Of a DNA stretch of 64,000 nt, positions 4,001 to 63,340 are shown piece after piece (positions within the stretch are counted from its first letter, which is position 1; each line of letters begins with the position of its first letter). The DNA is from Naegleria gruberi. Taxonomy: Eukaryota. The DNA lies in assembly GCA_000004985.1 (NCBI GenBank), contig GG738846.1; one strand, written 5' to 3'. Under the pieces are notes generated by a model, which saw only the letters and a list, made by a program, of their open reading frames with translations, did not search any database and was not told the origin of the DNA. The position numbers were made by a program, and so were the translations under genes.

Positions 4001-4756
4001 ATTTTGATCCAAATATTCCCTTCCTAATACTTATTTCCTTTGGATCATAAAAATTTTCTGTATAATAAGTTTTCTCCTTTTCATCAAACATTGGTTTCAG
4101 TGATCGTTCAAACTCATCCAATGACATAACAAAATGTATTTCGAAGTTGTCTTAGATGTAATGTCAATCTTGTTGCGTAGGTTCGAAATATTGTTGGCAC
4201 ACAAAAGAACAATCATCAAACAAAGGTTCGTTGATGTGGAGTTTTATAATTTTAGTAGTAATTTTTTTTTGATCAATATCAAAATTGGGATTCTCTTAAT
4301 ATGCAATACCTTAAAACTCGTCTTACAATCCTAAAACTAAATACTTTATAGTGAGTGGTAATATAATTTCTCCTCTATTCAAATGTATCAAACAAAAAAC
4401 TGCTCTGAATAAATCTTAATACCTAAAAACAGCAATAACAAGGCTACAAACTACCTAAGAATAGGTAGATGTTATAGTGTGAGGAATTCCATAACTCAGA
4501 AAGCGAGAATATTAATATCCAATATCTATCCCAAACCGCTTTTTTAGGATATGGCTTTTTAAAAAGGGCAATCTGGTTGAATTTTTACTTATTTATGGCT
4601 ATGGAATTTTATAAAATATATTGTTTCTAGGGATGTAGTGACATGTGTCCTCCTACCAATAATCCAATAACAATATCAACCACTATTAAGGATTTTTGGA
4701 ACAATTTTACGTATTGTGGTAAATTTCTAGATTTGTAAATTAAAAGAAATATCTAG

Positions 4757-4919
4757 AAATTTATTTGACCTCAGTAATTACATTTATATGTTATGCAATG
4801 GTAATTAATTTAAAAAAAAAAGACAAACAATTCTGCAAACATTGTTTCTTATTTGATACTATAGTAATGAACAAGTATTCTTGTGTTGGGATTATTTATA
4901 ATCCAATTTGTGGAAAAGG
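4757..4919. repeat. Dispersed repeat copy B (inside duplication unit 1).
   Basis: Same core as copy A, plus an 11 bp insertion ATTCTGCAAAC. It lies about 270 bp upstream of the lipid-kinase ORF. Confidence 0.6.
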
Positions 4920-45059: not shown

Positions 45060-46259
45060 TTATTGTTGAGATTTCTTTTTTTGCAAAATTTCATTTTCCA
45101 CTCTAAGTTTTTGAATGAGAGCCTTCTTCTTTTCAACTTGAGATTTAAGATGGCCTTCCAATTGAGCCTTTTCCTTTCTAACAGTTGTACGTGGATTCTT
45201 ACCGTTCTTTTCTGGTGGAATCCATTCAATAGTACCAGTCGTACTAATATTCTTAGCCAAGTTATCAAGATAGTATTTGGTATTATCGATTTGTTGAGAT
45301 TTAGTCAACATAATTTCTGTACGTTCCCTCAAATTGTGTTTTGTTGTTACATTTGGAAGTTCAATTTGATTCAAAAGATTTCCTTGTTCTAGAGAACCAC
45401 CAGTGTATGAAAGTAATCCCAAGAAACGAGCCTTCTTAACTTCAGTTTCAATTCTCTTGTGAGTTCTTCTACGAACACCAGTAAATCTCTTTGGAATGAT
45501 ACGACCAGATTGAGAAACAAACTTGAGAAGGAGGGATGGATTCTTATAAGAAATCTTTTCAATGTAATGTTGATTATTACCGAATGGATCTGGTGGACGT
45601 GTCTTAAATTGTGGTAATTGATGCAATTGATATTCCATCATCTTACGATGTTGCATATCATCACCAGTTAATTTACCTTCTCTCCAATCTTGAACAACAT
45701 CAGTGAATTGAGAGATGGTATTCATAAATTCTGTATGACCAGTTGGTGGTTTGTTATATAACCAGCCAGCTGTATTGGCATTTGTTGGAGTCTTTAAATC
45801 ATGATTAAAAACATCGCTGTCGGCTCTTTCTATAAAACGATAATAATCATACCAAGTACTAGCTTGTCCAGACATACTGGAACGTTCTTCGCTTGATTGA
45901 GATTTTGTTTGAGCGTAGAAAGGACTCTCGGGGTTAATTTGTTTAGAAGTACTCTTTCTTGTAGCAGCTTCATAAACATCAGAACCATCATAGTTAGCTC
46001 TTCCACCTCTAATTTTTGTAATATTGTCTTCAATGAGTTTGTGCATATCCTTGGCAGATAACTTCTTTTTAGACAATCTTCTCTTTGCTGCTTCATCCAA
46101 ATGTAAAGTTCTTACGCTATCATTTTTACAAATATTTTGATGGAAGAATTGTTGTTGTTGGCTATTAGAGGTAATAAAAACAACTTGTTGTAAGAGAGGA
46201 GACTTGGTACTGCTTCCCTTCAATGGCACTATTACTGTTGGGAAAACAAGTCTTTTCAT
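45060..46259 (-). CDS. Mitochondrial ribosomal protein with a bS18 (S18) domain, 399 aa.
   Basis: The central segment GRIIPKRFTGVRRRTHKRIETEVKKARFLGLLSY matches the ribosomal S18 signature (I.pRr.TGlc.k.QR.l..aIKrAR.mgLlp). The N-terminal extension and basic C-terminal coiled coil are typical of mitoribosomal proteins. Confidence 0.5.
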   Translation of the reverse strand: MKRLVFPTVIVPLKGSSTKSPLLQQVVFITSNSQQQQFFHQNICKNDSVRTLHLDEAAKRRLSKKKLSAKDMHKLIEDNITKIRGGRANYDGSDVYEAATRKSTSKQINPESPFYAQTKSQSSEERSSMSGQASTWYDYYRFIERADSDVFNHDLKTPTNANTAGWLYNKPPTGHTEFMNTISQFTDVVQDWREGKLTGDDMQHRKMMEYQLHQLPQFKTRPPDPFGNNQHYIEKISYKNPSLLLKFVSQSGRIIPKRFTGVRRRTHKRIETEVKKARFLGLLSYTGGSLEQGNLLNQIELPNVTTKHNLRERTEIMLTKSQQIDNTKYYLDNLAKNISTTGTIEWIPPEKNGKNPRTTVRKEKAQLEGHLKSQVEKKKALIQKLRVENEILQKKKSQQ

Positions 46260-46457: not shown

Positions 46458-46922
46458 TTACCATTCACTATTTTGATTGGTTGGTTGATAGTTTTGTTGA
46501 AGTCCTCTCTTACATTCATTCAATGTGTCAAAAGCATATTGGCATGAAGAAATATTATTTGATGACTGTTCCAAACATTGAGAGAAAGCTTGCATTTGAG
46601 AGAAACACTTTTGCATTTCTTGTTGAGAATATTGTGGTTGTTCTGAAGAGTCCTTTGATCCACCAGTGAAAGAATCATAGATAGCATGACCAATCATGTT
46701 ACCAACAACAGCACCAGCAATATTTGAAACTAATCCGGAACCCATTCCACCAGAGCTAGCCATTTGTGGTTGAGCAGTTGGTTGTGGAGTGGTATGTGAT
46801 TGGTGTGGAGCTTGTTGTTGTGGGGTTGAAGAATAGTTTCTTTGTGGTGGAGCTTGGGTTTGTGGTTGAGGAGGAGATGACTTTCTGGTTGCGCCAGTGA
46901 ATCTGCTTTTACGTTGGGCCAT
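46458..46922 (-). CDS. Twin-Cx9C CHCH-domain mitochondrial intermembrane-space protein (Mix17/CHCHD2-like), 154 aa.
   Basis: A P/Q-rich N-terminus is followed by a Gly-rich hydrophobic helix (GSGLVSNIAGAVVGNMIGHAI) and then two Cx9C motifs, CFSQMQAFSQC and CQYAFDTLNEC. Confidence 0.65.
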   Translation of the reverse strand: MAQRKSRFTGATRKSSPPQPQTQAPPQRNYSSTPQQQAPHQSHTTPQPTAQPQMASSGGMGSGLVSNIAGAVVGNMIGHAIYDSFTGGSKDSSEQPQYSQQEMQKCFSQMQAFSQCLEQSSNNISSCQYAFDTLNECKRGLQQNYQPTNQNSEW

Positions 46923-47338: not shown

Positions 47339-50300
47339 ATGAGTGATCATCTGTCTAGTCATCATGCGGCTGGATCGCAAACATCACCATCATCATCAAT
47401 ATTTGAATCATTTTATAGAAAATTCGAATCATTACGGAGGTCTAATGGTATGTAGTGTGATCATTAGGAATATTTTAAACAATGCTAATCCGAACATGTT
47501 GTTATTATTGTTGTTAATATCAAATAGATATAATCAACTTAACAAAAGTCTTAACAGAACTAAGAGACATTCTTGAAAGTGCCTCTCTATCAGAATGCTT
47601 TGAATTTTCTTCTATATTATTACGTCCACTTGTGGAATTTCTCAATGAAGGTACAACACCAAAATTTAAGAAGGATGACAAGGAACATCTTCTCAGACAA
47701 GTAATAATAGAAATTATACAAAAACTTCCACATACAGAGGTTAGTATTGAACTTTAAACTATCAACTAATGTGATTAATAGTTATTTGATGAAAGAGCTG
47801 GGAAAAAAGATGATTTAGTACTTTTAGTCAATTCTCTTATTAATGTCATCAAGACAGATAATGAAATCAATGGAGTGGTGGCTATTAGATTAATAATCGA
47901 AATTCAAAAATGTTTCAAATCAAACATTACAGACTTTGTTCAACCTCTTATTGAAATATTCCTACATTTTTTCGGAAATTTTGAAAAGATTGTTGAGAAA
48001 TATTTAGGAAGAAAACCAAAGAAAAATGCATCAGACCCAACAGTGGAAGGAGAATCATACCCTTTAACAGAATTGGATTTAATACCTTCCATGGATAGTT
48101 GTAAATTAATGTTAGAGTTACCAGTATTTATTATATTCTTCTTCCGTACATTAACAATCAAAGATACAAATAATAATATTTTTATCAAATTGGTTGAAAA
48201 GATGTATGATATTTTAAGATATGAAGTATCAGTTTCTGATTCAGTAATGTCATCTCCATTTGGAAAAGAAAGAGTTGAAGATTTCATGTTATTGAGGGTT
48301 AAAACTATTTCATTTTTGATTTATACCTCTTCTAAATATAAGAATAATGATAATTATACAACGGAAATACCTAGATTTGTTATTAAATGTCTTAGGGAAT
48401 GTCCAGACGAATGTATAGCTCCAAGAAAGGAAATGCTTTCACTAATGAGACATATTGTTGAAAGACAAAATGATGATTCTAATACTATTTGCAAATATTT
48501 TTTACCTTACATGAATGAAATGTTGGATGATACTATTTTAATTGGTAAAAGTAGATCTGCTCAAGAAACAGTAAGATCATCTGCTTATTCAACAGTTCTA
48601 GAAATATTGAAAAATCAATTGAAAAATATTGAATTTTCTCCTTCTAATATTGCTTCATGCATTTTATTTTGTACTAAGGTATTATTTGATTCATCTTTAG
48701 GAATTACAATTCATGGTTTAGCAACAGGATTGCTAGTAGCATTAACTCAAAATGTTTTTGATCAAATAAGAAAGATATCTGGAGTTTCAGATCCATCTGG
48801 TGATGTCTGTGCTGCCTTGTCTGGTATTTCAGAAGAGTCACTTTCACAAATCACCAAATTTAAGGATCATTTGTTGAGTATTATTCAAACATTTGTTCAA
48901 AAGATTAAGTTCATTTCTAATTTTATCAAAAAGATAATACAATATAAGAATATTCAAAAATCTTCAACATTGAACGAAAAGGAACAAACTGATGATATGA
49001 CAATGATTTTACCATTTAGTCCATACAAATCATGTGAAAATTTTAATGATGATATTTCTTATTGCTCCATGATGTTTAAACAAATAATTTTTGGTTTAAA
49101 GTCAACAGTACTTCTATATAATATGATACCAAGAAATGAGAAACAAAAATTCCCAGAATTATCAGTATTATCTAAACTTTTTAGATATGGATTGGATTGT
49201 TTCGATATTTTCAATTTATATTCAGAAGATACAGAATATGGTCAAAAGCAACGAGTATTAGATGAAAAGGAAATATTTAATAACTATTCATCTTTATATA
49301 CATCACTACCTTCGGCTTTATTTACAGAAATATTCAAAACTCAATTTGATTATCTATACAAAAAATTATTAGAAGGAAGAACAATGACATTTATCCATAT
49401 TCCATCAAATATTCTCTCATCTTCTCAACATATTGCTTCAATTCTCTCAGAGATACTCTTAAAATTTTTACTGAAAAGAATGGATAGAATACCAAAAGAT
49501 CGTAAAGAGGCTTATTATATTCACAACCTATACAAATTAGTATTTGGTTCAGTGGTAACATTCCCTAAGAATGAATCTATTTTAAAAAATCAAATGACCT
49601 CGATTGTTACATCATGTTTCAGTTATGCATCTAAATATAAGGATTGTTTAGATTATTATCTAATTTTAAGATCTTTATTCAGTTCAATCCTTACAGCTAA
49701 ATTTGATTTACTTTGCAAGGAATTCAGTCAATTACTTCCAACAGTTTTGGAAAAATTGTCTGATTTGGTAAATAATGCTCATGACAAGGAAACAAGGAAT
49801 ATATTTGTAGAGCTTTGTCTAACAGTTCCTTCCAAGTTACACGTTTTATGCCCTTATCTTTATTTATTAATCAAACCAATACTGTATGCTTTAGAGCCTG
49901 GTTCAAGTGAGAAGGCTGTTAGTGCAGCTTTAAGAAATCTGGATTTGTGGGTTACTAGTTTACGTAATGAATCATTAGAAGCCATTCTTAAACCTGTTAT
50001 ACCAGATTTACTTAAAGCACTATTCTCTCATTTGAAACCTCCTCCATACCCTCATGGATCTGCAGTAATGAAATTATTAGCTAAGTTGGGTGGTAGTCAC
50101 AGACAATATATGAGTGAATTAACTTCAGTTAGTGTCAAGTCACCAAATGCTTTATTCCTAAATATTAATTTTAATTCTAATCAAACGGAATCATTACCAA
50201 TGGATGAATTGGTTGATACTTCAATTGAAATTTGTTTCGATAAGGATCAAGATGTACAAACAAAAAAGAGTGCATTTGATTTTTTGAAAACATCATTACT

Positions 50301-53300
50301 TACTATGATGTCATGTACAGAGCAAAGTCTAGCTATACCAAATGATTTCAAATTTAGTTTTAAACATATTAACCCTAAAAAGTATTTCCACATTTCTGCA
50401 TCATCACCAAAAAGTTGTGATCCCTTCCAAAATATTTTAGATGTTTTGGAGCCAAAAGGATCAATGCTTTATGAAAGTGAAATTGCCATATTTACCAAAA
50501 TTTTGAAAAATATCTTCTTATTTATGAACTATGCTGTAAAGGAAAATCTGGTTGAATGTATAGAATTTACCAAATCCTTGATCAAACACTTTGCAATTTT
50601 ATCAATATTTGTGAATATTAATGTTGAACAAGCTTCAAAGTTTAGAATTAATCCTGATTGGTTCTATGAAGTTTTAATGAGTGTTTTTGAAGAGGATTGT
50701 ACAGAAACATCTCCATCTGTTAATGTAGGAGATTTTATCTTGTACATATTTACAGATTATGTTTATGAATTGTGTGATAATGATGCTGATATGGTAATTC
50801 AATTTGGTATTTGGGAAAGACTTCAATCAAGATTCACCAAATACCTATATCAACCTGAATGGTATAAGAAATGTGTTGGTGCAAAAGGTATAATCTTCTT
50901 AAGTGAAAATATTACACCAGCTTGGTTGGTTCATTATGAAGCTGATATTGTTCGTGCTCTATTCTTTTCACTGAAGAATCAACCTCCACATATGCTTTCT
51001 CATACCAATCAAATAACAATCATGGCAGCAGAGAGTATTATCAAAGCATGTTATAATACAGCTATCTTTGATATTACACATCTTTGCAATGGTCAAATCA
51101 ACGAAAAGATTGTAAAGGTTGATAATGCACCAGATTCTCTTACAGAAGGAGAAGTTGTAGTTCATGTTGAAAAAGTTGGAAGAGAATCTATATTCAGAAA
51201 GCGTTTGATTCTTCATTTGCTTTACACTGAATTGACTAGTACTCAATCTCATATTCGTAGATTGGCTCAATCACTCCTAAGATTATGTTCAGAATTAATG
51301 AACATTCCAGTTCTAGTAATACTTGAAAGGTTTAGACAAGAATTGCCTATTAAAGATGAAAAGCAAGCTAAGGATTTGTCTCAAATTACAGTTATGCTTG
51401 AACTTTTGGTCTTCCAATTGGCAACAAGGGATTCTAATCTTACAGGTTCCACTATTTCTGTAGCGTTTAATAAGGCTTTGACATTACTAAGAAATGATGA
51501 TTATGGGAAGGAGACAAAGGATCAAAAGAAAATTTTCAATGCAAAAATTGTTGCCTTGAAACTAATTAGAGAAGCTGTCGTAAGCAAAGAATTAAGATAT
51601 AATGAAAAAGATCAACTCAAGACAATGATTGAAACATTTTGTAAATTCCTTAACGCTCAGAATAAGGAAGTTGTCACTATTGCTAAAACAGCATTAATAT
51701 CATTCATATCTCAATTTAAAACTCCAAAGGATTCTTTACAACATTCCTTGAGACAAATATCTACAAACTTTCAAAAGCATGCTCACTTTACATTATTATT
51801 CCTTCAAGGAGCCTCATTTTTCCTCAAGTTTAACTCTAACATGCAAGGACTCAAATTTGGTCCTAACTTGCTTGATAACCTTAAGAAATGGCTAGATAAA
51901 TCATCAATCAAGCATATTCAAAATGTTAAAGAAAAACCTCTAGTTGCTGCAGAGATGATATCTTTATTTTCTATTACTGATTCAGCTGAGTTTTTGCCTC
52001 AAATAGTTCCTATGGTTCTTCAATTGGAAGCAGTATGGTCAGACGAAATTAAGAGTTCAAATCCATTTATTGCTCCTCTTGCCAAGTATTTGAACATATA
52101 TTATGAAGATGCTATCAAGTACTTCTTTGATCCAACTAGTGGGTGTTTTGTACTGTCTTCTAAGAGAAACTATCAATTCTTTATGGATATTTTGAAATGC
52201 AGAAAATCTATTGAACTTACAGCTCATTTATTGTCCCAATCTAATATTATTTCCAATTTATTGTCAAACATTACCAAATTAGATTTTTATTCAGATAATT
52301 TTGCTTCAGATCCAAATAATGTTCTGACACTAGTTGGTAGCATTACAAAATTATCTCCAGGTTGGTTTACTAAAAAGAAACCAGTATTCGATGAGATTTT
52401 ACGATTATGGCTTATGAATATCAAGTTTGCCAATAGTTTACACAATAGTAATCAGTCGAACCTAGAAATATCTCCATTGTTAGATGTTCAAATAATTAGG
52501 TTTACAAGAAAGCTTATCAAATTTATTATTAATTATTGTGATTGTAATTCAAATGAGGTTATATCACTCTTTGAAATTGTCAAGGTATTTGGATGTGGGC
52601 TTGTAATGGATTTGACTTTTGTTAAAGATTATTTCAGAACAAAAGTTGGTTTGGAGTATTCCACTGAAAGAAAGGAAGAGATATTACAAAACTTTTGTGC
52701 ATTGTTTAAACGTGATGAAATTTCTTTCCATTTGAAGTCTGATGCACTTAAACATATTGTTATACCAATAGTTAATGGTGCTGCTAAATCTGGTACTGTT
52801 TTTAATGTAAAAATTATGGGAATGTTATTTGAGGAAATTTTGCAAACATTACCACAATCATTAGCCAAGTTAACAGATAAGGAAAAATATTCTTTGAAAG
52901 TTGATTTACTACAACTAGCTACCTTGTTTGTAAAATACTTCCCAAAGTCCCATGTAGAGGCTTGTTGGAAGTCAATTGTAAAATTCTCCTATGAAAATTG
53001 CATTGTGGATGATATTACTACAAATCAATGTGCTTTTGTTTTGATTTCACACCTGATGAACAAGATAGGATTGCCAGCAAAAGTAGTCCAACAGGTATAT
53101 ATTGCATTCTTAAAGGATTGTAAGAAAGATAGCAAATCTCTTGTTTTACCTGCTTTGGATATGATTATTCAACCGGTTAAGGATGCACAATTACCATCTA
53201 ATGATTCTAAATTCCCAACCTGGATTAGAGTTACAAAGAAAACCCTATTGGAAGATTCTCCTTCAGCTATTCAACTCTTAAATATTTGGACAATATTTAT

Positions 53301-56300
53301 TAGACATGCAGATTCATTTTATGAATCAAGAGAGTTTTTCATGTCCAAGATGATAAACTCCCTCTCTAAAATTGGATATTCTTCAATGAATTTGGAGAAT
53401 AAGAAATTATATATACAATTGGTTGATTTAATAATATCTTGGGAAGAGAGGGCAGCTGGTGTTTATCACCCTGAGGATGATAACGACAAGAAGAGAAAAG
53501 TAGAGCAATTGGAACAACAAGACACAAATGGATCAAAGAAGAGAAAAGTAGATGAAGCTAGTTCAGTTCAATCCAATAACGGTCCTGTTGATGTGGACAC
53601 TTTTAGACTTAAGCCTCAATCTAGAAGCATTGTACTTAATTACCTTCTTCGTATGTGTGTATTTGTGAGCTCTTTCCAACCAAGAACAGAAAAACCACAA
53701 ATACTTTACAAAGAATGTATTAGTATCCTTAAAAGAGCTCTTAATTTGTGGAAGGAGGAAACTATTTCATTTAGTCAAATTGAAAAACAATTTCCTAACT
53801 CAGAGGAAGGTTCTTCCACTTTGAATCCAACATCCCTATGTTGTATTCTAGAACTGATGACTTTATTCGTAGAGTTGAATAGAGGAATTATTCAACTAAA
53901 CGCTCAATTTGCTAAAAAGCTCATTCCATTCTTGGCAAACTCAAATATTGATGTTAACAAGAATGCATGTAAATTCTTCAAGACTTTATTACAACATTTT
54001 GATCCTCTAGTTTCAAAAGATACTGACGTTCAGGAGTTTTATTCAGTTATTTGGTCATCAATCAAAGAAACTATTGGTAAATATGCTGGAAAAGAGAATA
54101 CCAATCAAGTAGATAATTTATCACACATTTACACAGTTGTTGTTGGTTCATTTGGCCATTTATTGCTCTTACATATTCTTTGTGACCATTACCAAAATGA
54201 AGAAACAAAACAACAATTTTTTAAACAAGTTTATGGACTTTTAAACAAAATATTGAAGCAAGTTGGACAAGTAGAATGGAAAGATCTTCTTGTTGGTTTT
54301 GTTGAACTTTGTCTATCTTTCCTTGTTGATGGTCATGATCCTGTTGGAAAACACTTCCTCTCTGCTATTATCTTCCTTGTTGAAAAACCTGACATTTTGA
54401 ACATATTCAGTCCTAATCTACTCCATTTAATAATTGATATTGTTTTCCATTTGGTAAAACCAAATCCATCCAATACTATTGTTAGAAGTTATACTCTTCC
54501 ACTTGGAGATGATTTGAAGATGACGAAGTTAGGAAAACGTGCCTACAAAGTACCAGACCTTCAAAAGGTTGGACTTCTCATCAAATTAGTTACACTTTTT
54601 GAGCAAGCTCCTGATGAACTTAATGATTTGAAACGTATTTATTTTACTTTGTTAATGGAAGTTTATCAACAAATGGATGATACCAACTCACCAATATCGA
54701 AGAGAATAGAGTTTTGCTTCATGTCTGGACTCAAGATTGAATCAAAGGATCTCAAAGATATCAAGACTAAATACCTATCTATTTTAAATAGAAAAGTCGA
54801 AAAAACAGCTTTTAAGAGATTGCAGTTTGTGATTGAGAGTTCAAGATGGGAGCCTTTGAGTGATAGATTCTGGATAAAATATGCTCTAGAACTTTTATTA
54901 GAATCAATTAATGGAGAAGAAAAATTGAATTGTGATAAGAATACAGCCAAAATTTCACCAATATCAATTGACTTTGGTAAGAGGGATGGAACAATTTTAA
55001 GAGGATATGAAAGAATATCTTATGCGTTAACGCAACACGAGACGTTTGTTAATACTATTCCAAATTTGAAGTCTATTGATATGATAAACCCACTCAAGGT
55101 ATTAATAAGAGCATCTACAAACATGTCGTTTAAGGCATGGGGAGCCTTTTTCGCAATTGCTTGGAATCAATTAAACATGGAAGAGAAGAGCATTATACAA
55201 GGACAATTACAAAAACTTCTCTCCGTAGAGTATCATTCCAAGCAATATGTCAAATATCCTAATGTTATTCAGGCATTATTACTTGGTGTTAATAATGTGG
55301 TACTTTGTGGAAAATCAGAAGCACCATTCCTATCAATTCATCCAGAAACCCTCAAATTTATTGGTAAATCTTTTAACGCTTGGTCTTTAACTATACCACT
55401 ACTTGAAGAAGAATTGAGAGGAATGCTGAACGTTGGCATTTTTGATGAGAAGACAGAAAAAGTATGCAATTCACTTGCAGAACTTTATAGAGTTTTGAAA
55501 GAGGATGATATTCTTGCTGGAATTTCTAGATCTTGTGACATTACTGATCAAACAAAATTAGTACTTTCCTTAGAACAAAGGAATAATTGGAATGAAGCAC
55601 AAGAGGCACTCAAAGAATTGACTAATGCTTATCACCGTGGCCAAATTAAAAAGAAAGTCACACATACTGAATTGCAATTATGGGAGGAACACTGGTTAAG
55701 TTGTTCCAAGAAACTTCAACAATGGGACGAACTTACTAAATATTCCCAAGCCTCTTCCAATGCCACATCTCTTCTTAGTTTAGAGTGTATGTGGAAGAAT
55801 GGAAATTGGCAACAGATGAAAGAACTTTTCCAAAAGCATGCATCAATGGAAAATCAACTTTTAAAATTCTTCCAAATCAGTTGTTTGATAATGCAAGATA
55901 AGGAAGTTGAAGCTGGTGAAACGTACATTGTTGCACAACAATTAGCTCTTCAACGTTGGTGTGCACTACCATCGTTCATGTGTGGTAATCACACTTTTAT
56001 GTTACATATTTTCCAACAATTGTATGAACTCAATGAGTCTGCTACACTCTTAACTGATACCAAGAAACCAATTTCTACCAATGAGTTGAAAGGTTTTTTG
56101 ACTACTTGGCGTGATAGACTTCCAAACAAATGGGAAGATATAGGTATTTGGAATGATATTTTCACTTGGAGATGTCATATTTTAAAGAAGGCAATCGAAA
56201 GATTTGATCAAAAGGAAGAATTTGCACACCATAGAGCCTTATTATTGAATGAAACCATTTGGTCGTTACACAAATTCTCTAAAATCTCTAGAAAACAAAA

Positions 56301-59295
56301 CTTTATTGAGCCTGCATTAAGAATGCTTTCAGAGACAGGTAAATTACTACCAACTCTAACAAGCGAAACAAGTGAAGTGTTTGTTAGAATAATTGAAATA
56401 ATTAAGAGCTTGATTAAGGATAGAAGATATAATGATGTTTTGGATTATATTGAATCTGATACAATTGCAACAACAAAACTCAAGACAACTCAAAAAATGG
56501 AAATTTTGAGGTTGAGAGGGGAAGTATATTCAATTTGTGGTCGTTATGATGAAAGTTACCAAACATATGCTCAATCTGTTTCCTACTTCCCTCAAGAACC
56601 AAAATATACCTCTTCAATTACAACAACACCATCATGGGGTAAAAGTTTCTTCAAGTGGGCACTAGTTTTAGACAAGTTATTTGTTGAAAAATGGAATTCA
56701 CCAAATAGACATCAAAGAACCAAACAAAATTCTACAAAACATCCAACTCTCTCAATGACTGCTTTGGAATTTGCTGAAAATTGTATTGCTGCCTATTTGT
56801 TGGCAATTAAATATTCTGGAGGTGCCACTAATCACCAAAGTATTCAGGCCTCAGGTGCTACAGTTAGACAGTATATTGGACGTGTATTGTGGTTATTATC
56901 ATTTGATGAAGCTCTACCAACAGAAAAATCAAAAGCAACTCAAGAAGCTGTTTATCCACTTCAAAAAGTTGCTGAAAAGACTATTGGTGACATTCCTGCA
57001 TGGATGTGGATTCCTTGGCATCAACAATTATTCTCCATGCTACATCGTCGTGACTGTGAAGCCAACATTGCCAAACAATTGTTGAAAGCCATTCTCCTCA
57101 ACTTCCCTCAGTCTTCATTCCATACATTTAGAAGCTTTGTTCATGATTTGAGAGAACTGTTATCTTCTATTACTAAGAAGGTATCCACTAAATCTGATAC
57201 CGGGGATGCTACAGCACCTGCTACTCTAAGAAGTAATAACTCTAATATTCATGTTTCTATCAAGACTAGTGCTGAATCGTCTCAAAATCATAATCAATTC
57301 TATCACGATTTCTTCAAAAAAGTGAGAAGTCGTCTTGATGAAATTATGCAAGAAGGTAATAAGCAATTATTTAATGATTTGGAATCAATGTACAAAGAGT
57401 TGACAAAATACAAGTCTGAACCTGAAGAAGAATTAGCCAAATCATTTGAATTAATGTTAGAAATAGCCTTCGGATTTAATATTTATTCAAATCAAGATGC
57501 CATGATTCTTGATGATGAGACCCATTTCATTCCTCCTATATTGATAGAGTATTCAAAGAGAATTATTGAATGTTACTTTGGTGATATTATTCAACCTGGA
57601 ACTGTTCCACAACAACCCCAACCACAACAAGCAAAGACTTCCTTCTTATCAGAATATCAAAGTGAAATTGTAGCTGATATTCTACCAAGAAAAGAAAGAC
57701 TTGAATATGCCAAGACTTTGAAATATGTAGCTAAAACTATAACTAATCTTGGTCCAAGAACAATAATAGAGCTTGTAAATAACTTGAAGAAATGGATTGG
57801 TGTTATTCAAAAGAAGAAAATCAATTTGATTCCAACTATTATTGGTATTGAAACTCAAAAAGCTAAATTAATGGAACACAAATCTTATCCTGATATTGAA
57901 ATTCCAGGACAATATGAACTCACTAGTGATAGGGAACCATTCGCTGAAAGGCATGAAAGAATTCTTTGTCTTCTTCCGTCAATATCTATGAAGAATAAGA
58001 AGAATAGAGAAACTGGTAGAAGTATTTCTTTGAGAAGTGTTTCAGGAAAGATCTTTAAATTCTTTATTCAATCAACCTCTTCTGTTGATGATACTACTCT
58101 CAAGACAGAAGAAAAAATGGCCTCTCTCATTAGACATATTAACAGATTGTTAGATAAGGATAAAACTGCAAAGAGTCATAACAATGTTCACTTGGAATAT
58201 CCTATAATCATTACCGCCAATCAAAGAATTAGATTTATTCGTGAAGATTATGATTATATTTCCTTGGATGAAATATATCATGATTATTGTGAATCCATGG
58301 CTAAATCCATTGATACTCCAATACTTAAATATTGGCAAGAAATGAATAAGGCATGTTCTGAGCACCAAAATGAGCTTGAAACAAAATTGAATGTATTTAA
58401 CACCATTCTTGAATCTAGAGGAAATGATGATTTATCTCTAAAAATTCCTGATACAATAATGCTCAACTACTTTAGAGGTATTTGTCCAAGTTGGAGTGAA
58501 TTTTACAAGATTCGAAAGACATTTGGTGGCCAATTGGGTATTTATAATGTGTTGAATTATTTACTACATACCAAGGATAGGCAACCATATAAGATTCTCA
58601 TTGCAAAGAATAGTGGTAATCTTTTCCAATTCGATTTAAGACCTAATATTCAAAAATCTACTGGTTTAATTGTTAGGGATGACCCAACACCTTTTAGACT
58701 TACTAGAAATATGATTCAATTCCTCTCTCAATTTGGTGTTGAAGGCTACTTGTTGAATTCAATGTCTTCTGTTGCTTGTTCCCTTTCTGATAACAAGGAT
58801 GTTTTCGAATCTCTTATTCAATTATTTATTAGAGACGAACTCATCTCTTATCATAACTTTAATGTAGATTTACTCAATAATGAGAGTAGCACTCCAATGG
58901 GAGAAAACCGTTTCTGTTTCAATGATGACCTTGTTAAGGGTTGCGTTCAACAAAACCTAGATTCAATTATGGGATTAGTTGCTGAAATGGCTCCACCAAT
59001 TCCACAAAATTTGACTTGTAATCCACCACAAGTTCTTCCAGCAAAGAAGAAGTCCAAGAAGGAGTCCGTATCTTCAGACACTATTGATAATATTTCTGCT
59101 GCTTCTCCAAGTGTTACAACACCATCTACTCCATCTTCTTTCATATCAACTCCAACGATTTCAGCGAGCTCCCAACCTGTTTCTAATATTTTAGACTTGC
59201 CACCCCTCAATAGCAAGGTCTATGAACTCATTCAACAAGCTTCACAACCTGAAAGATTATGTTTGAAAGATCCAAGTTATTATGCATGGTTCTAA
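47339..59295 (+). CDS. TRA1: Tra1/TRRAP, the SAGA/NuA4 scaffold and PIKK pseudokinase, about 3944 aa. Three exons: 47339-47447, 47528-47739, 47782-59295.
   Basis: Exon 1 (MSDHLSSHHAAGSQ...ESLRRSN) ends G/GTATGT. Exon 2 reads (D)IINLTKVLTELRDILESASLSECFEFSSILLRPLVEFLNEG...IIQKLPHTE and ends GTTAGT. Exon 3 begins LFDERAGKKDDLVLLVNSLINVIKTDNEINGVVAIRLIIEIQKCF, colinear with the TRRAP N-terminus. The giant HEAT/FAT body ends in a PI3K-like fold and a FATC tail, LIQQASQPERLCLKDPSYYAWF. Confidence 0.85.
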
Positions 59296-59505: not shown

Positions 59506-61597
59506 ATGATGCACACCACTACTCCTTGCAAAAGCATGATACTGGATACAAGCGCCTTGTTTACTATCATGCATTATAAATCAGAGAAAGTACACATTCT
59601 CAAAACTCCACAAGAAATTGCAGAACAAGTTTCCGATAAAATAATTCAAACAATCAATTCCAATAATTTGAAAGGAAAACCAACAGTATTGTGTCTACCA
59701 ACTGGTAGTACTCCAATTCTTACCTACAAAGCCCTTGTAGAAAAGTATAAGAAGGGATTGGTATCATTTGAAAATGTTATAACTTTTAATTTGGATGAAT
59801 ATTATCCAATGGAATCAACCCACAAACAATCCTATCATTACTTTATGAATGAAAATTTATTTTCCCATATTAATATCAAGAAGGAAAATATCCATATTCC
59901 AGATGGTCAACTCCCAATCGAAAAAGTTGCTCAATTTTGTGAAGATTATGAAAATGAGATTCAGCAATTAGGAGGTTTTGATTTGGCTATTTTGGTATGT
60001 TTTTACAATTATCATTACTTCTCATTTTAATCAATTTTATATTAAATACCTTCTTAAATAGGGAATTGGAAGAACTGGTCACATTGGTTTCAATGAACCT
60101 GGTAGTCATTTAACAGATGGTACTAGAATGGTCCTATTAGATCAAAAAACCAGACTTGATGCAGCTTCCTCATTCAAAGGAATTCAAAATGTTCCAACCA
60201 GAGCAATCACACAAGGTATTAGTACTATTCTCAATTCAAAAGAAATTCTTCTCCTTGCAACTGGTGAATCCAAATCTGAAATTATCAAAAAGGCTATGGA
60301 AGACAAATTTGAAGATCCAACAGAATGTCCAGCAACATTTTTACGAGTTCATCCAAATACTCACTATTATTTGGATATTGCTGCTAGTAATTTATTGAAA
60401 ATTGTTAAAACTCCATGGTTGGTAGATCGTAATTTTAATGATTGGTCATTCGAATGGAAAAAGAAGGCTGTTGTTAATTTGGCAAAAGAAACTCGAAAGG
60501 GAATTTGTGAATTGAGTGCTGAAGATTTCTCAAAACATGGGCTCACCAGTTTATTATCTCATGAAAAGTATAACACTGACAAGTTGTGCTTCTCAATTTT
60601 CCAAGATTTAATGAAGAGAATTGCCTTTGCTACTGAAAAATCTGACATTGTTCCTGATAACATCAACGATCCAGTTCTCATCTTTTCTCCTCATCCAGAT
60701 GATGATGTCATTTCTATGGGTGCAATGATGCATTGTATTATTTCTAGAAGAAAGGAGCAATTACCACCAGAACAAAGGGATCAAACTGACATTAATGTCA
60801 AAGTTTGTTACATGACTAATGGATCAGTTGCTGTACATGAAAACAATGTAAAGAATCATTTAAGATTCAGCTCTCTAACAAGTGAAACACTTGGAAAGGA
60901 TTTTATTAACAATCAAGATATTTCTCAAATTTTGGAAAAGAAGGATAAGAATGACCCAGATAGTGAACTGGTACAAAAGTTGAAGGCAAATATCAGAAAA
61001 GCTGAAGCTATGGATGCAGTTGATGTGTTGTAAGTACTTCTTTAATCGATTCAATTCTTAATCTTTTTTAGAGGATTGCACGGAGAAAGAGATTGCATAT
61101 TCCTTGATCTTCCTTTTTATAGAACTGGAAAAGTACAAAAGAAGCCACTTGGACAGGAAGATGTAGATATGGTCAAAGACTTAATTACACAAAGAAAACC
61201 AAAACATATCTTTATTGCTGCAGATTTGTCCGATCCTAATGGAACACATCGTGTGGTTTATAGAGCTATCAAGATGGCTCTTGAACAATTGGCAGATCAA
61301 GTTAGTGACGTGTTGTGTTGGCTTTACAGAGGAGCTTGGCAAGAATGGGATATTGAGGAAGCAACCTATTTCATTCCATTTACAAAATATCAAATGGATT
61401 TGAAGATTGATGCCATTTACAAACATCAATCCCAAAAAGATAGAGCACTCTATCCAGGTGATGATGCTCGTGAATTTTGGCAAAGAGCAAAGGATAGAAA
61501 TACTGAAACAGCTGTCACTTTAGGTAATTTAGGGTTGCCAAAATTTTGTGGTGTGGAAGCCTATGTTACTGTTAAACCATCACAAATTCCAGAATAA
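59506..61597 (+). CDS. Glucosamine-6-phosphate deaminase (NagB) fused to a C-terminal LmbE/PIG-L-type (GlcNAc deacetylase-like) domain, 660 aa. Three exons: 59506-59994, 60062-61029, 61072-61597.
   Basis: NagB blocks are VLCLPTGSTPILTYKALVEKYKKGLVSFENVITFNLDEYY and, after a 67 bp GTATGT intron, GIGRTGHIGFNEPGSHLTDGTRMVLLD. The C-terminal half carries the LmbE signature VLIFSPHPDDDVISMGAMM. A second, 42 bp intron (TT/GTAAGT ... TTTTAG/A) joins ...DAVDVL to GLHGERDCIFLDLPFYRTG.... The length and architecture match the bacterial long-form NagB. Confidence 0.7.
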
Positions 61598-61756: not shown

Positions 61757-63340
61757 TTATTTCTTGTTAGCAACAACAGATACCCAAGAAACTGGTTGAT
61801 CAGTTGAAGTGGTTGGAGCTAGTACTGGAGTAGCGTTGGTTACATTAATGGATGGAGCTGATGATTCAGTTGTAGCAACATTGGTTTTTGATTGTTGTTT
61901 TGGCTCTTTGGTTTCCTTAGTTTCGGATTTTTGAGGCTTGCTATAATGAGGCTTTTGATGTGTAAGAGTATGAGCTGGAGCATTGCTTCCTCTTCTTTTC
62001 CTTGACTTGGCAAAGAAATGAGAAGTGGATGGGGTATCAGGTGTCTTGATGTCCTTAGCTGTTATAGCAGCTTCAGCGAATGAAGACTTTGGAATCAACA
62101 AGTTGGTTGGCTTAACTGATTGGACAGATGGTGTGGTTCCTTCCTTTTCAGTTTCGAGTGGGAGAGTTTGATTGGCAAGTTGACTCTTATCCATTTGAGG
62201 TTTGTGTAACTCTAAATCCTTTTTAGGTTCCTTCAAAATTGCTATACATTCAGTTCCGTTCAAAATTTCTGGTTTGGTATCGTGTTCACCCTTTTCTTGT
62301 TGTTCCATATAAACACTCATAACAGTTTGCTTACTATAACGCAAGAACTTTTGATTTCCGTATCCAGCTTGTTCAGTTTCATTCATCTTTGGAAGTGGAG
62401 GGAAACTCTTTGTGCTACTCAAGTTCAACATATCTTTACGTGGTCTAGTTTGTTTACTAACATTACTAGCTTGGCTGTTTCTACTACCACTGTTGCTTCT
62501 AGTTCTTCCTCCTCGTTGACTAGTTCCCCTATTGTTGTTGTTGTTGTTGTTATTATTGTTTCTATTGCCATTTTGAGAGGATTGAGGTGTAGTAGTGGCG
62601 GAAGTTGAAGGAGAAGTTTGTTGTTGTTTGTTGAAACTTCTTTCCTTTGGTTGTTGGCTTCCATTATTTTGATTTGTTCTATTGTTGTTATTGAATTTTC
62701 TATTTCCTCTATTGTTATTGTAAGAGTATTGATAACCATTTTGTGGAGTTTGTGGAGTTGGAGTAGTACCAACAGTCTTTAACAAGCTTTCAGTTTTAAT
62801 TCTTGCCTGTATTGGTTTTTCATCCCATTGTTGAGTCTTTAAGTGTTGAACAGCTTCAATGGTTTTTTCTTCTGTTTCAAATGAAGTGAACCATGTATTT
62901 CCAATGTCGCTATGGATATTAACAGGTTGGTTATCATGAGAGAAAAGTTTAAGGATTTCTTCTTTTGGAACATTTTGAGAAATGTCTCGGATAATGACTG
63001 TATTTCTCTTCAAGACAATGTTTGGTTTGAGTTTCTTGTTTGCTGCATCAAGAATAACCTGATTCGAGTTCTTTACAGCCTCACAAATCAAATCCAAGTC
63101 GTTAGTGAGGGTTTTAATCATTTTGAAATTAGCAATGACAGAAACTGGGACAAAGAGGTCATGACTCATTTGGGAAACCAAATAGTGGTCAGTAGAGAGG
63201 TTTTGACGAGAAAAGTAGTATTCAACTTGTTTACAAATGGCTTCTTTCAACTCATCTCTAGTTAATTGTTTCTTTTCAGTTGTTTGCTCAACATTTTCAG
63301 TAGCTGGTGTTGCTTGGGTGGATTCGCTTTGTTGACTCAT
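61757..63340 (-). CDS. La-related protein (La motif plus RRM-like), 527 aa, with poly-Asn and low-complexity Q/N/S/T regions.
   Basis: The La motif is LTRDELKEAICKQVEYYFSRQNLSTDHYLVSQM...FVPVSVIANFKMIK. It is followed by an RRM-like region, an N11 tract and an ST-rich tail. Confidence 0.6.
   Translation of the reverse strand: MSQQSESTQATPATENVEQTTEKKQLTRDELKEAICKQVEYYFSRQNLSTDHYLVSQMSHDLFVPVSVIANFKMIKTLTNDLDLICEAVKNSNQVILDAANKKLKPNIVLKRNTVIIRDISQNVPKEEILKLFSHDNQPVNIHSDIGNTWFTSFETEEKTIEAVQHLKTQQWDEKPIQARIKTESLLKTVGTTPTPQTPQNGYQYSYNNNRGNRKFNNNNRTNQNNGSQQPKERSFNKQQQTSPSTSATTTPQSSQNGNRNNNNNNNNNNRGTSQRGGRTRSNSGSRNSQASNVSKQTRPRKDMLNLSSTKSFPPLPKMNETEQAGYGNQKFLRYSKQTVMSVYMEQQEKGEHDTKPEILNGTECIAILKEPKKDLELHKPQMDKSQLANQTLPLETEKEGTTPSVQSVKPTNLLIPKSSFAEAAITAKDIKTPDTPSTSHFFAKSRKRRGSNAPAHTLTHQKPHYSKPQKSETKETKEPKQQSKTNVATTESSAPSINVTNATPVLAPTTSTDQPVSWVSVVANKK

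Follow-up and report, generated by a model that had tools for sequence, protein, structure and literature searches.

How did a gene of bacterial type come to lie, split by spliceosomal introns, between eukaryotic neighbours in the genome of an amoeba, and what might its product do there? The question is raised by a locus at positions 59506-61597 of a 64,000-nucleotide stretch of Naegleria gruberi contig GG738846.1 (assembly GCA_000004985.1); the whole of this stretch is called the window here. The locus encodes a protein that joins a NagB (glucosamine-6-phosphate deaminase) domain to an LmbE/PIG-L deacetylase-like domain. A sequence-only reading of the window had offered two explanations, an anciently integrated horizontal acquisition or an undescribed eukaryotic amino-sugar salvage enzyme. 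We found that ancient, integrated horizontal acquisition is the best reading, since the protein is a long NagB of bacterial type, its gene is resident in the host genome and, in distance trees, it groups inside bacterial diversity with Rhodothermales (Bacteroidota), its closest prokaryotic relatives. The second explanation was wrong, as the protist long form had been published in 2006 (PMC1484493) and is found here also in Heterolobosea, Stygiella, Anaeramoeba and Barthelona. The whole explanation, namely an ancient bacterial transfer, descent within Heterolobosea, a working deaminase, an LmbE sugar domain and a role in salvage, is one that we consider probable.

Gene structure and host adaptation

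The coding sequence (59506-59994 + 60062-61029 + 61072-61597) comprises 1983 nt and translates into 660 amino acids and a stop. Exon 1 (59506..59994, plus strand, as is the whole gene; amino acids 1-163) carries the N-terminal portion of the NagB (Glucosamine_iso) domain, with the TGSTP phosphate-binding loop and, in the motif NLDEYY, the codon of the catalytic Asp97 (59794-59796). Intron 1 (59995..60061) is 67 bp long, in phase 0, has the borders GTATGT...AAATAG and lies between DLAIL and GIGRTGH. Exon 2 (60062..61029; amino acids 164-486, the last codon being split) encodes the remaining NagB domain with His170 (60080-60082) and Glu175 (60095-60097), followed by a helical linker at about amino acids 286-365 and by the LmbE domain's first half with HPDDD (60692-60706). 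Intron 2 (61030..61071; 42 bp, phase 2, GTAAGT...TTTTAG) is followed by exon 3 (61072..61597; amino acids 486-660 and the stop), which contains the second LmbE-like half with the motifs DPNGTH (Asn542, 61238-61240; His545, 61247-61249), WLYRGAWQEW and HQSQKD...REFWQRA.

Unspliced, the frame runs into stops at 60030 and 61033, the latter being the read-through stop of intron 2 (61031-61033), and the GC content is 20% in the introns versus 35% in the exons. The spliced protein is collinear with its orthologue in Willaertia magna at 78% identity, and tblastn placed query residues 12-538 in one high-scoring segment pair. The Willaertia orthologue is intronless at both N. gruberi intron sites, and homology with this collinear protein supports the spliced gene model. 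The coordinates, the length of 660 amino acids and the two GT-AG introns of 67 and 42 bp that had been read from the sequence were thus borne out by the splicing, the stops in the frame and the Willaertia alignment. The start codon is ambiguous, because the Willaertia protein begins opposite N. gruberi residues of about 9-11, which makes Met11 (59536) an alternative start.

The composition of the gene was found to be host-like, with a GC content of 0.346, a GC content at third codon positions (GC3) of 0.253 and a relative synonymous codon usage that correlates at r = 0.96 with that of the pooled open reading frames (ORFs) of the window, all of them values within the spread seen in neighbouring genes. 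Physical integration and adaptation to the host are demonstrated by the introns together with the host codon usage, the eukaryotic flanks and a linkage kept in Naegleria fowleri. The NagB-LmbE locus is a real intron-bearing nuclear gene.

Membership in the long-NagB family

Profile searches identified both domains in the spliced protein. Pfam Glucosamine_iso (PF01182) matches at 59605..60346 (plus strand; amino acids 34-258, across intron 1) with an E-value of 9e-25 and 88.2 bits (cut-off 27), and TIGR00502 nagB scores 248.6 bits (cut-off 236.9). The motifs TGSTP, NLDEYY, GHIGFNEPGS and SPHPDDDVISMG are all present, and matches to protein sequences of the PDB (NagB/GNPDA chains, E 1e-45 to 1e-53) are confined to the N-terminal domain, which has the NagB fold. 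Pfam PIG-L (PF02585) matches at 60677..61279 (plus strand; amino acids 369-555, across intron 2) with an E-value of 2e-11 and 44.8 bits (cut-off 28.2), so that the assignment of the C-terminal half to PIG-L, on which the sequence-only reading had staked its case, holds. This match covers profile positions 1-128 of 129, and a conserved C-terminal region extends beyond it to about amino acid 655 (61579); the C-terminal domain has the LmbE fold. The NCBIfam model NF002557 (PRK02122, 'glucosamine-6-phosphate deaminase-like protein') covers both domains at once, with 712.1 bits (cut-off 384) over residues 22-654 and profile positions 22-651 of 653, which confirmed the proposed architecture over the full length. 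For structure prediction and for the representative search, the Willaertia orthologue (P0001, 78% identical) served as a proxy.

The architecture is not new for eukaryotes, since Andersson et al. (2006, BMC Evol Biol 6:27; PMC1484493) described a 'long version' of nagB, whose C-terminal extension is conserved, from Entamoeba, Mastigamoeba, Dictyostelium, ciliates and Trichomonas, as well as from several bacteria. They presented trees, discussed lateral transfer both from prokaryotes to eukaryotes and between eukaryotes, and found no archaeal nagB. The premise that eukaryotes possess only GNPDA enzymes of about 270-290 amino acids was therefore mistaken, and the claim of novelty built on it fails, because the protist long NagB is a published example of patchy genes shaped by lateral gene transfer (LGT). 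The N. gruberi gene is a heterolobosean member of this already described family, and it shares with the genes of that study the two-part architecture, the length class, the patchy eukaryotic distribution, the affinity to bacteria (Bacteroidetes, Planctomycetes) and an evolutionary history for which lateral transfer is favoured. Unlike here, no heterolobosean nagB was sampled there and the extension was not named LmbE/PIG-L. Our literature search brought up no mention of a heterolobosean nagB, no naming of the nagB extension as an LmbE domain and no biochemical characterisation of any long-form NagB/LmbE fusion; on Naegleria amino-sugar or chitin metabolism it gave nothing usable.

Comparisons with known systems further define the protein. 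The bacterial proteins of NF002557, such as those of Rhodothermus marinus and Salinibacter ruber, resemble it over the full length of the hidden Markov model (712 bits) and are 45-48% identical to it, and about 160 of its residues, spread across both domains, occupy alignment columns with at least 97% identity in about 210 long-form sequences. In contrast to these bacterial genes, the N. gruberi gene is eukaryotic and intron-bearing, uses AT-rich codons, and has His542 and Cys548 replaced. Relative to the short NagB/GNPDA enzymes (Escherichia coli and Bacillus subtilis NagB, human GNPDA1), it has about 380 extra residues that make up the linker and the LmbE domain, and relative to E. coli NagB it lacks equivalents of the allosteric Lys160 and Thr161. 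Unlike the LmbE/PIG-L deacetylases (MshB, BshB/BC1534, archaeal Dac, PIG-L), its LmbE domain is fused to NagB and has an insertion of about 90 residues; the second motif of the long form is DPHGTH, not HPDH, and the first His of this motif is Asn in Naegleria. These results do not overturn current understanding. They extend the set of protists with a bacterial long NagB by Heterolobosea, a jakobid, Anaeramoeba and Barthelona, sharpen this example of patchy LGT among free-living and anaerobic protists and point to Rhodothermales-like Bacteroidota as its nearest prokaryotic relatives.

Distribution of the gene and positions of its introns

Orthologues were found in Willaertia magna (78% identity to the N. 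gruberi protein), N. fowleri (79%, from a truncated gene model), Acrasis kona (51%), Heterolobosea sp. BB2 (49%), Pharyngomonas kirbyi (47%), the jakobid Stygiella incarcerata (46%) and Anaeramoeba flamelloides (46%), and the long form is also present in Barthelona sp. Rhodothermales and other Bacteroidota contribute hundreds of sequences at 45-48% identity. The sequence-only reading had looked for bacterial long NagB at the top of the list with both domains covered; the top matches were heteroloboseans, and the bacteria at 45-48% came after them among others. The orthologues of Willaertia, N. fowleri, Acrasis and Anaeramoeba are flanked by ordinary eukaryotic genes.

The introns differ from lineage to lineage. 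The site of intron 1 is common to both Naegleria species (with about 195 bp in N. fowleri) and is without an intron in Willaertia, Acrasis and bacteria. Intron 2 occurs in N. gruberi only among the loci compared, with none at the site in N. fowleri or Willaertia. Willaertia has an intron of its own between ADL and SDPNG, N. fowleri has further introns between DPNG and TH and after QEW, and in Acrasis the motif NLDEYY is split between NLDE and YY. The Anaeramoeba orthologue, which takes up 6.4 kb for 643 amino acids, contains two introns, one of some 4.3 kb (L004, 8857-13192) and another in the GIGR codon, about 11 nt off the Naegleria intron 1 site and so near but not identical to it. Such differences in intron position between lineages are consistent with intron gain after the arrival of the gene.

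Two side observations concern the heterolobosean sequences. The N. fowleri orthologue (GCA_008403515.1, VFQX01000059.1) needs changes of frame at about 4440-4470 and 4820-4850, for example between DLINQQ and KPKHVFIAADL, and its annotated product (P0002, 475 amino acids) omits conserved segments; these breaks are probably an assembly indel error or a poor gene model, not a real truncation. Environmental proteins P0003, P0004, P0006 and P0007, encoded on metagenome contigs of 1.8-2.3 kb, fall inside the heterolobosean clade, P0003 being very close to Acrasis, and presumably belong to uncultured heteroloboseans in the metagenomes and metatranscriptomes of JGI and Logan.

Beyond eukaryotes, at least 597 bacterial stretches encode a relative, and they come from Rhodothermales, Flavobacteriia, Cytophagia, Balneolaceae, Ignavibacteria, Gemmatimonadota and Planctomycetota. 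The long form is found as well in Omnitrophota, Margulisbacteria, Elusimicrobia, Chlamydiota and some archaea (Helarchaeota, Bathyarchaeota). Full-length archaeal NagB-LmbE proteins were seen in metagenome-assembled genomes of the Asgard group Helarchaeota (P0234, P0384-P0386), in the YNP archaeon (P0413) and in Bathyarchaeota (P0440). When named long forms of Amoebozoa, ciliates and Trichomonas were sought, the representative search gave mostly metagenome proteins, and the only named members in two cluster look-ups for these eukaryotes were Barthelona, Omnitrophota and Helarchaeota. A homology search from the divergent representative P0272 matched only Margulisbacteria, Elusimicrobia, Chlamydiota and archaea.

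Phylogeny and origin of the gene

Trees were built by neighbour joining (NJ) from Kimura plus gamma distances, with 100-200 bootstraps and arbitrary rooting. Naegleria and Willaertia were grouped with a bootstrap of 100%, the core clade, which also takes in Acrasis and the environmental sequences, with 77-96%, and this core clade plus strain BB2 with 60-70%. Many derived substitutions are common to Naegleria, Willaertia, Acrasis and the environmental members of the core clade. Within Heterolobosea the gene is, judging by these comparisons, inherited vertically. Rhodothermales received 78%, and the grouping of eukaryotes and Rhodothermales against all other bacteria received 88.5%, a value that belongs to arbitrarily rooted trees with weak deeper nodes. 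Pharyngomonas, Stygiella, Anaeramoeba and Barthelona were placed nearby without support, and the Helarchaeota sequence lay far from the eukaryotic group. As judged from the trees and identities, the nearest prokaryotes of the heterolobosean gene are Rhodothermales-like Bacteroidota. Anaeramoeba is 50-52% identical to bacteria versus 46% to Naegleria. In the catalytic domains, identity to bacteria is 53-58% for Pharyngomonas and Stygiella and about 50% for Naegleria, the corresponding values for the linker being 36-41% and 33%; the Naegleria branch is, on the sequences at hand, fast-evolving.

The nested placement in bacterial diversity favours transfer from a bacterium to a eukaryote. The donor was most likely a bacterium related to Rhodothermales, in the Bacteroidota/Fibrobacteres-Chlorobi-Bacteroidetes (FCB) group, and the lateral transfer an ancient one; alternatively, the gene may have come from another eukaryote that had got it from such a bacterium. 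In this lineage the gene would go back at least as far as the ancestor shared by Naegleria, Willaertia and Acrasis, and probably to that of the whole of Heterolobosea; after its arrival it took on host codon usage and gained spliceosomal introns that differ from lineage to lineage. Several points count against this account. The trees are distance-based only, have a weak backbone and lack sequences of Amoebozoa, ciliates and Trichomonas; all sampled eukaryotes come together with bootstraps of just 23-44%, among them the value of 31% for a single eukaryotic origin; Pharyngomonas is not joined to the other heteroloboseans with support; and the direction and number of transfers are inferred, not proven.

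The opposite explanation has an early eukaryote, or the archaeal host lineage, already carrying the long form, followed by repeated losses and without any transfer from a bacterium to Heterolobosea. The architecture does occur in Discoba (Heterolobosea, Stygiella), Metamonada (Anaeramoeba, Barthelona, Trichomonas), Amoebozoa and ciliates (for part of these, PMC1484493), the sampled eukaryotes do fall together, if weakly, in the NJ trees, and long forms exist in Asgard (Helarchaeota) and other archaea. However, the eukaryotes are nested with Rhodothermales in a wide bacterial radiation, Anaeramoeba is closer to bacteria than to Naegleria, the Helarchaeota sequence branches far from eukaryotes, and Trichomonas was found apart from the Amoebozoa/ciliate group and near Bacteroidetes/Chlorobi (PMC1484493). 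Most eukaryotes lack the gene, so that this account would call for a very large number of losses, and we regard vertical inheritance from an early eukaryote as very unlikely. The sequence-only reading had named a widespread and vertical occurrence in eukaryotes as the finding that would speak against it, and this is half the case: the gene is widely though patchily distributed and descent is vertical within Heterolobosea, whereas the group of all eukaryotes reaches only the low bootstraps given above. Bacterial contamination or an assembly chimera, which could draw on the fact that the top non-heterolobosean matches are bacterial with 45-48% identity, is excluded with near certainty by the two spliceosomal introns, the host GC content and codon usage and the contiguity with the Tra1 and La-domain genes, and is further ruled out by orthologues with their own introns in other heterolobosean genomes. 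Its dismissal by the sequence-only reading was right, as the introns, the codon usage correlation and the Tra1 linkage in N. fowleri all confirm.

Catalytic residues of the two domains

In the NagB domain, Asp97, His170, Glu175 and Lys234 align with the catalytic Asp/His/Glu and the phosphate-binding Lys of Vibrio cholerae/E. coli-type NagB chains, Asp97 being aligned to their Asp72, and all of them stand at family columns conserved to at least 97%. For E. coli NagB, we take the key residues to be the catalytic Asp72, His143 and Glu148 and the phosphate-binding Lys208. The equivalent of Asp141 is Thr in N. gruberi; Thr, Ser, Asp and Asn are found at this position within the long-form family, and Asn in the B. 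subtilis NagB chain. Of the allosteric site (Arg158, Lys160, Thr161), the Arg is retained as Arg185, and the equivalents of Lys160 and Thr161 are Val187 and Leu188. By these residues, the domain looks like the non-allosteric B. subtilis type. Since every catalytic residue is present, the deaminase half should interconvert glucosamine 6-phosphate (GlcN-6-P) and fructose 6-phosphate (Fru-6-P) plus ammonia.

In the LmbE domain, SPHPDDD (amino acids 372-378) is at least 97% conserved in the family alignment and aligns with PHPDD of the Dac and MshB chains. A comparison of the C-terminal profile with the PDB gave archaeal diacetylchitobiose/N-acetylglucosamine (GlcNAc) deacetylases as the best solved relatives (E 3e-9), with only the PHPDD region aligned, and hhalign to MshB likewise aligned the PHPDD region only. 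The family motif DPHGTH is near-invariant, its first His being found in 99% of about 210 members. In N. gruberi, N. fowleri and Willaertia, the motif reads DPNGTH, so that the first His is replaced by Asn542 and the second (His545) is kept, and the conserved Cys548 is replaced by Val (61256-61258); both His and Cys are kept in Acrasis, BB2, Pharyngomonas, Stygiella, Anaeramoeba and bacteria. The substitutions H542N, C548V, G384A and D423E, at positions conserved to at least 97% in the approximately 210 members, are common to N. gruberi and Willaertia. H542N and C548V are also found in N. fowleri, and the other heteroloboseans keep the consensus at positions 542, 548 and 384; at position 423, Acrasis and a close environmental relative (meta3) also deviate.

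In the HxxH motif of MshB (HPDH), the first His is catalytic and the second binds zinc. The first His of DPHGTH is probably the counterpart of this catalytic His, as suggested by its position and by the topology of β-strand, loop and helix start. This mapping is positional and not aligned, because the profile alignments end at the PHPDD region. Between Naegleria and Willaertia, identity is 81.0% in the LmbE domain and 80.6% in the NagB domain, and this equal conservation between genera argues that the LmbE domain is still under selection. The Naegleria LmbE domain is possibly one with altered chemistry or with a binding role, and the His-to-Asn change amounts to a natural experiment.

Bacterial gene context and proposed function

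Function is the more useful lead that this family offers, as it occurs in at least 597 bacterial stretches and many protists and no assay of it was found in the literature. To describe the bacterial gene context, the ORFs lying up to 6 kb from 81 bacterial long-NagB loci (L006-L085 among them) were clustered. SusC recurred at 18 of the 81 loci, the N-acetylmuramic acid 6-phosphate (MurNAc-6-P) etherase MurQ (NF003915, 365 bits) at 17, DeoR regulators at 14, GHL10 at 12, AnmK at 11, SusD and GH20 at 10 each, a NagZ-like GH3 protein at nine, an AmpG-like permease of the major facilitator superfamily (MFS) at eight and a BadF/GlcNAc-kinase-like ATPase at six. No NagA of the amidohydrolase type was present among the annotated recurrent neighbour families of these loci. 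The context suggests amino-sugar catabolism of peptidoglycan or chitin, with the long form acting in its final stage. The product of MurQ is GlcNAc 6-phosphate (GlcNAc-6-P).

A scheme for the two halves can be proposed on this basis. The N-terminal domain, going by its conserved residues, would interconvert GlcN-6-P with Fru-6-P and ammonia through the Asp97/His170/Glu175 triad and Lys234. The LmbE-like domain would bind, and in most members probably deacetylate, an N-acetyl-hexosamine, for which GlcNAc-6-P is the most economical guess, and the GlcN-6-P arising from deacetylation would be channelled to the deaminase half. For the LmbE step, the fold, the closest solved relatives and the bacterial gene context are the grounds for this suggestion. 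In Naegleria, a bacterivorous amoeba, the enzyme could salvage amino sugars from the peptidoglycan or chitin of its prey; run in reverse, the deaminase could instead feed GlcN-6-P to cyst-wall glycans. That a fused deacetylase and deaminase takes GlcNAc-6-P to Fru-6-P in one protein is, from the gene context, the fold and the GlcNAc-type substrates of the solved relatives, a proposal we take seriously but would not yet call probable.

Some findings speak against this scheme. No biochemistry of any long-form enzyme turned up in the literature. We take the NagB of the Flavobacterium johnsoniae chitin locus to be a long form. Attempts to express this NagB failed, and deleting it was without phenotype (PMC5127042). 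F. johnsoniae also has a separate NagA (PMC5127042), so that the LmbE domain is not necessarily a substitute for NagA. For Naegleria and Willaertia in particular, the loss of the first His of DPHGTH and the replacement of Cys548 by Val imply that deacetylase activity may be weakened or lost.

If deacetylation is lost, the LmbE domain of Naegleria and Willaertia could be a ligand-binding, regulatory or structural module, and the protein a monofunctional NagB with a sensor domain. Substitutions at four sites that are at least 97% conserved (H542N, C548V, G384A, D423E) in a domain that is nevertheless under selection would fit such a module, and the E. coli allosteric site for GlcNAc-6-P, not being conserved, leaves room for another regulatory device. 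Yet HPDDD and His545, which presumably bind the metal and supply the general base, are intact, Asn is sometimes able to take over the role in oxyanion stabilisation, and His542 is equated with the MshB catalytic His by motif position and topology alone; we consider such a module unlikely. The two proposals can also be combined, such that the family is a bifunctional GlcNAc-6-P (or GlcNAc/chitobiose) deacetylase-deaminase working without NagA, and that in Naegleria and Willaertia the loss of the His, with purifying selection continuing, made the deacetylase domain a sensor of N-acetyl sugars through which the deaminase is regulated. This combination is quite unlikely in our estimate; if true, it would mean that an enzyme acquired laterally was re-tooled in a way specific to eukaryotes. 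A mainly anabolic enzyme, making GlcN-6-P from Fru-6-P and ammonia for cyst-wall polysaccharide, has been proposed for Gln6Pi of Giardia and Entamoeba. The NagB reaction is reversible and Naegleria encysts, and Gln6Pi is described as rate-limiting in Giardia cyst-wall synthesis and its knock-down blocks cyst-like structures in Entamoeba histolytica (PMC3581238). E. histolytica Gln6Pi is, however, reported as a 37-kDa protein (PMC3581238), which makes it doubtful as a long form and as a guide to one, so that the RNA interference (RNAi) paper is not relied on here. The bacterial context of MurQ, AnmK, GH20 and GH3 is catabolic, and a deacetylase-type domain makes little sense in an anabolic enzyme. 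A mainly anabolic role is accordingly unlikely, and amino-sugar salvage remains the reading that we prefer.

Neighbouring genes in the window

The gene lies between a Tra1/TRRAP gene upstream (47339..59295, plus strand), with Tra1_central, Tra1_ring, FAT and PI3_PI4_kinase domains, and a gene for a La-domain protein downstream (61757..63340, minus strand) that is identical to N. gruberi XP_002682959 (NAEGRDRAFT_56657), an identity that marks the window as N. gruberi DNA. Domain matches thus agree with the Tra1 and LARP (La-related protein) neighbours that had been proposed. The Tra1 gene has two introns near its 5' end, read by eye and in frame, at 47448-47527 (80 bp, GTATGT..ATAG) and 47740-47781 (42 bp, GTTAGT..ATAG), which join a small 5' exon (ATG at 47339) to the Tra1 ORF of 3806 amino acids. 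As Tra1 carries these similar short introns, the earlier remark that the NagB-LmbE gene shares its intron style with its neighbours is upheld. In N. fowleri, Tra1 lies about 3 kb from the NagB-LmbE orthologue, inverted and with a peptidase S9 gene in between (L002, 7728-14931), which shows that the linkage is partly conserved between Naegleria species; Tra1 was not found within 10 kb of the Willaertia orthologue (L001). Further upstream in the window, an ORF of 154 amino acids (46458-46922, minus strand) is located between the gene at 45060-46259 and Tra1.

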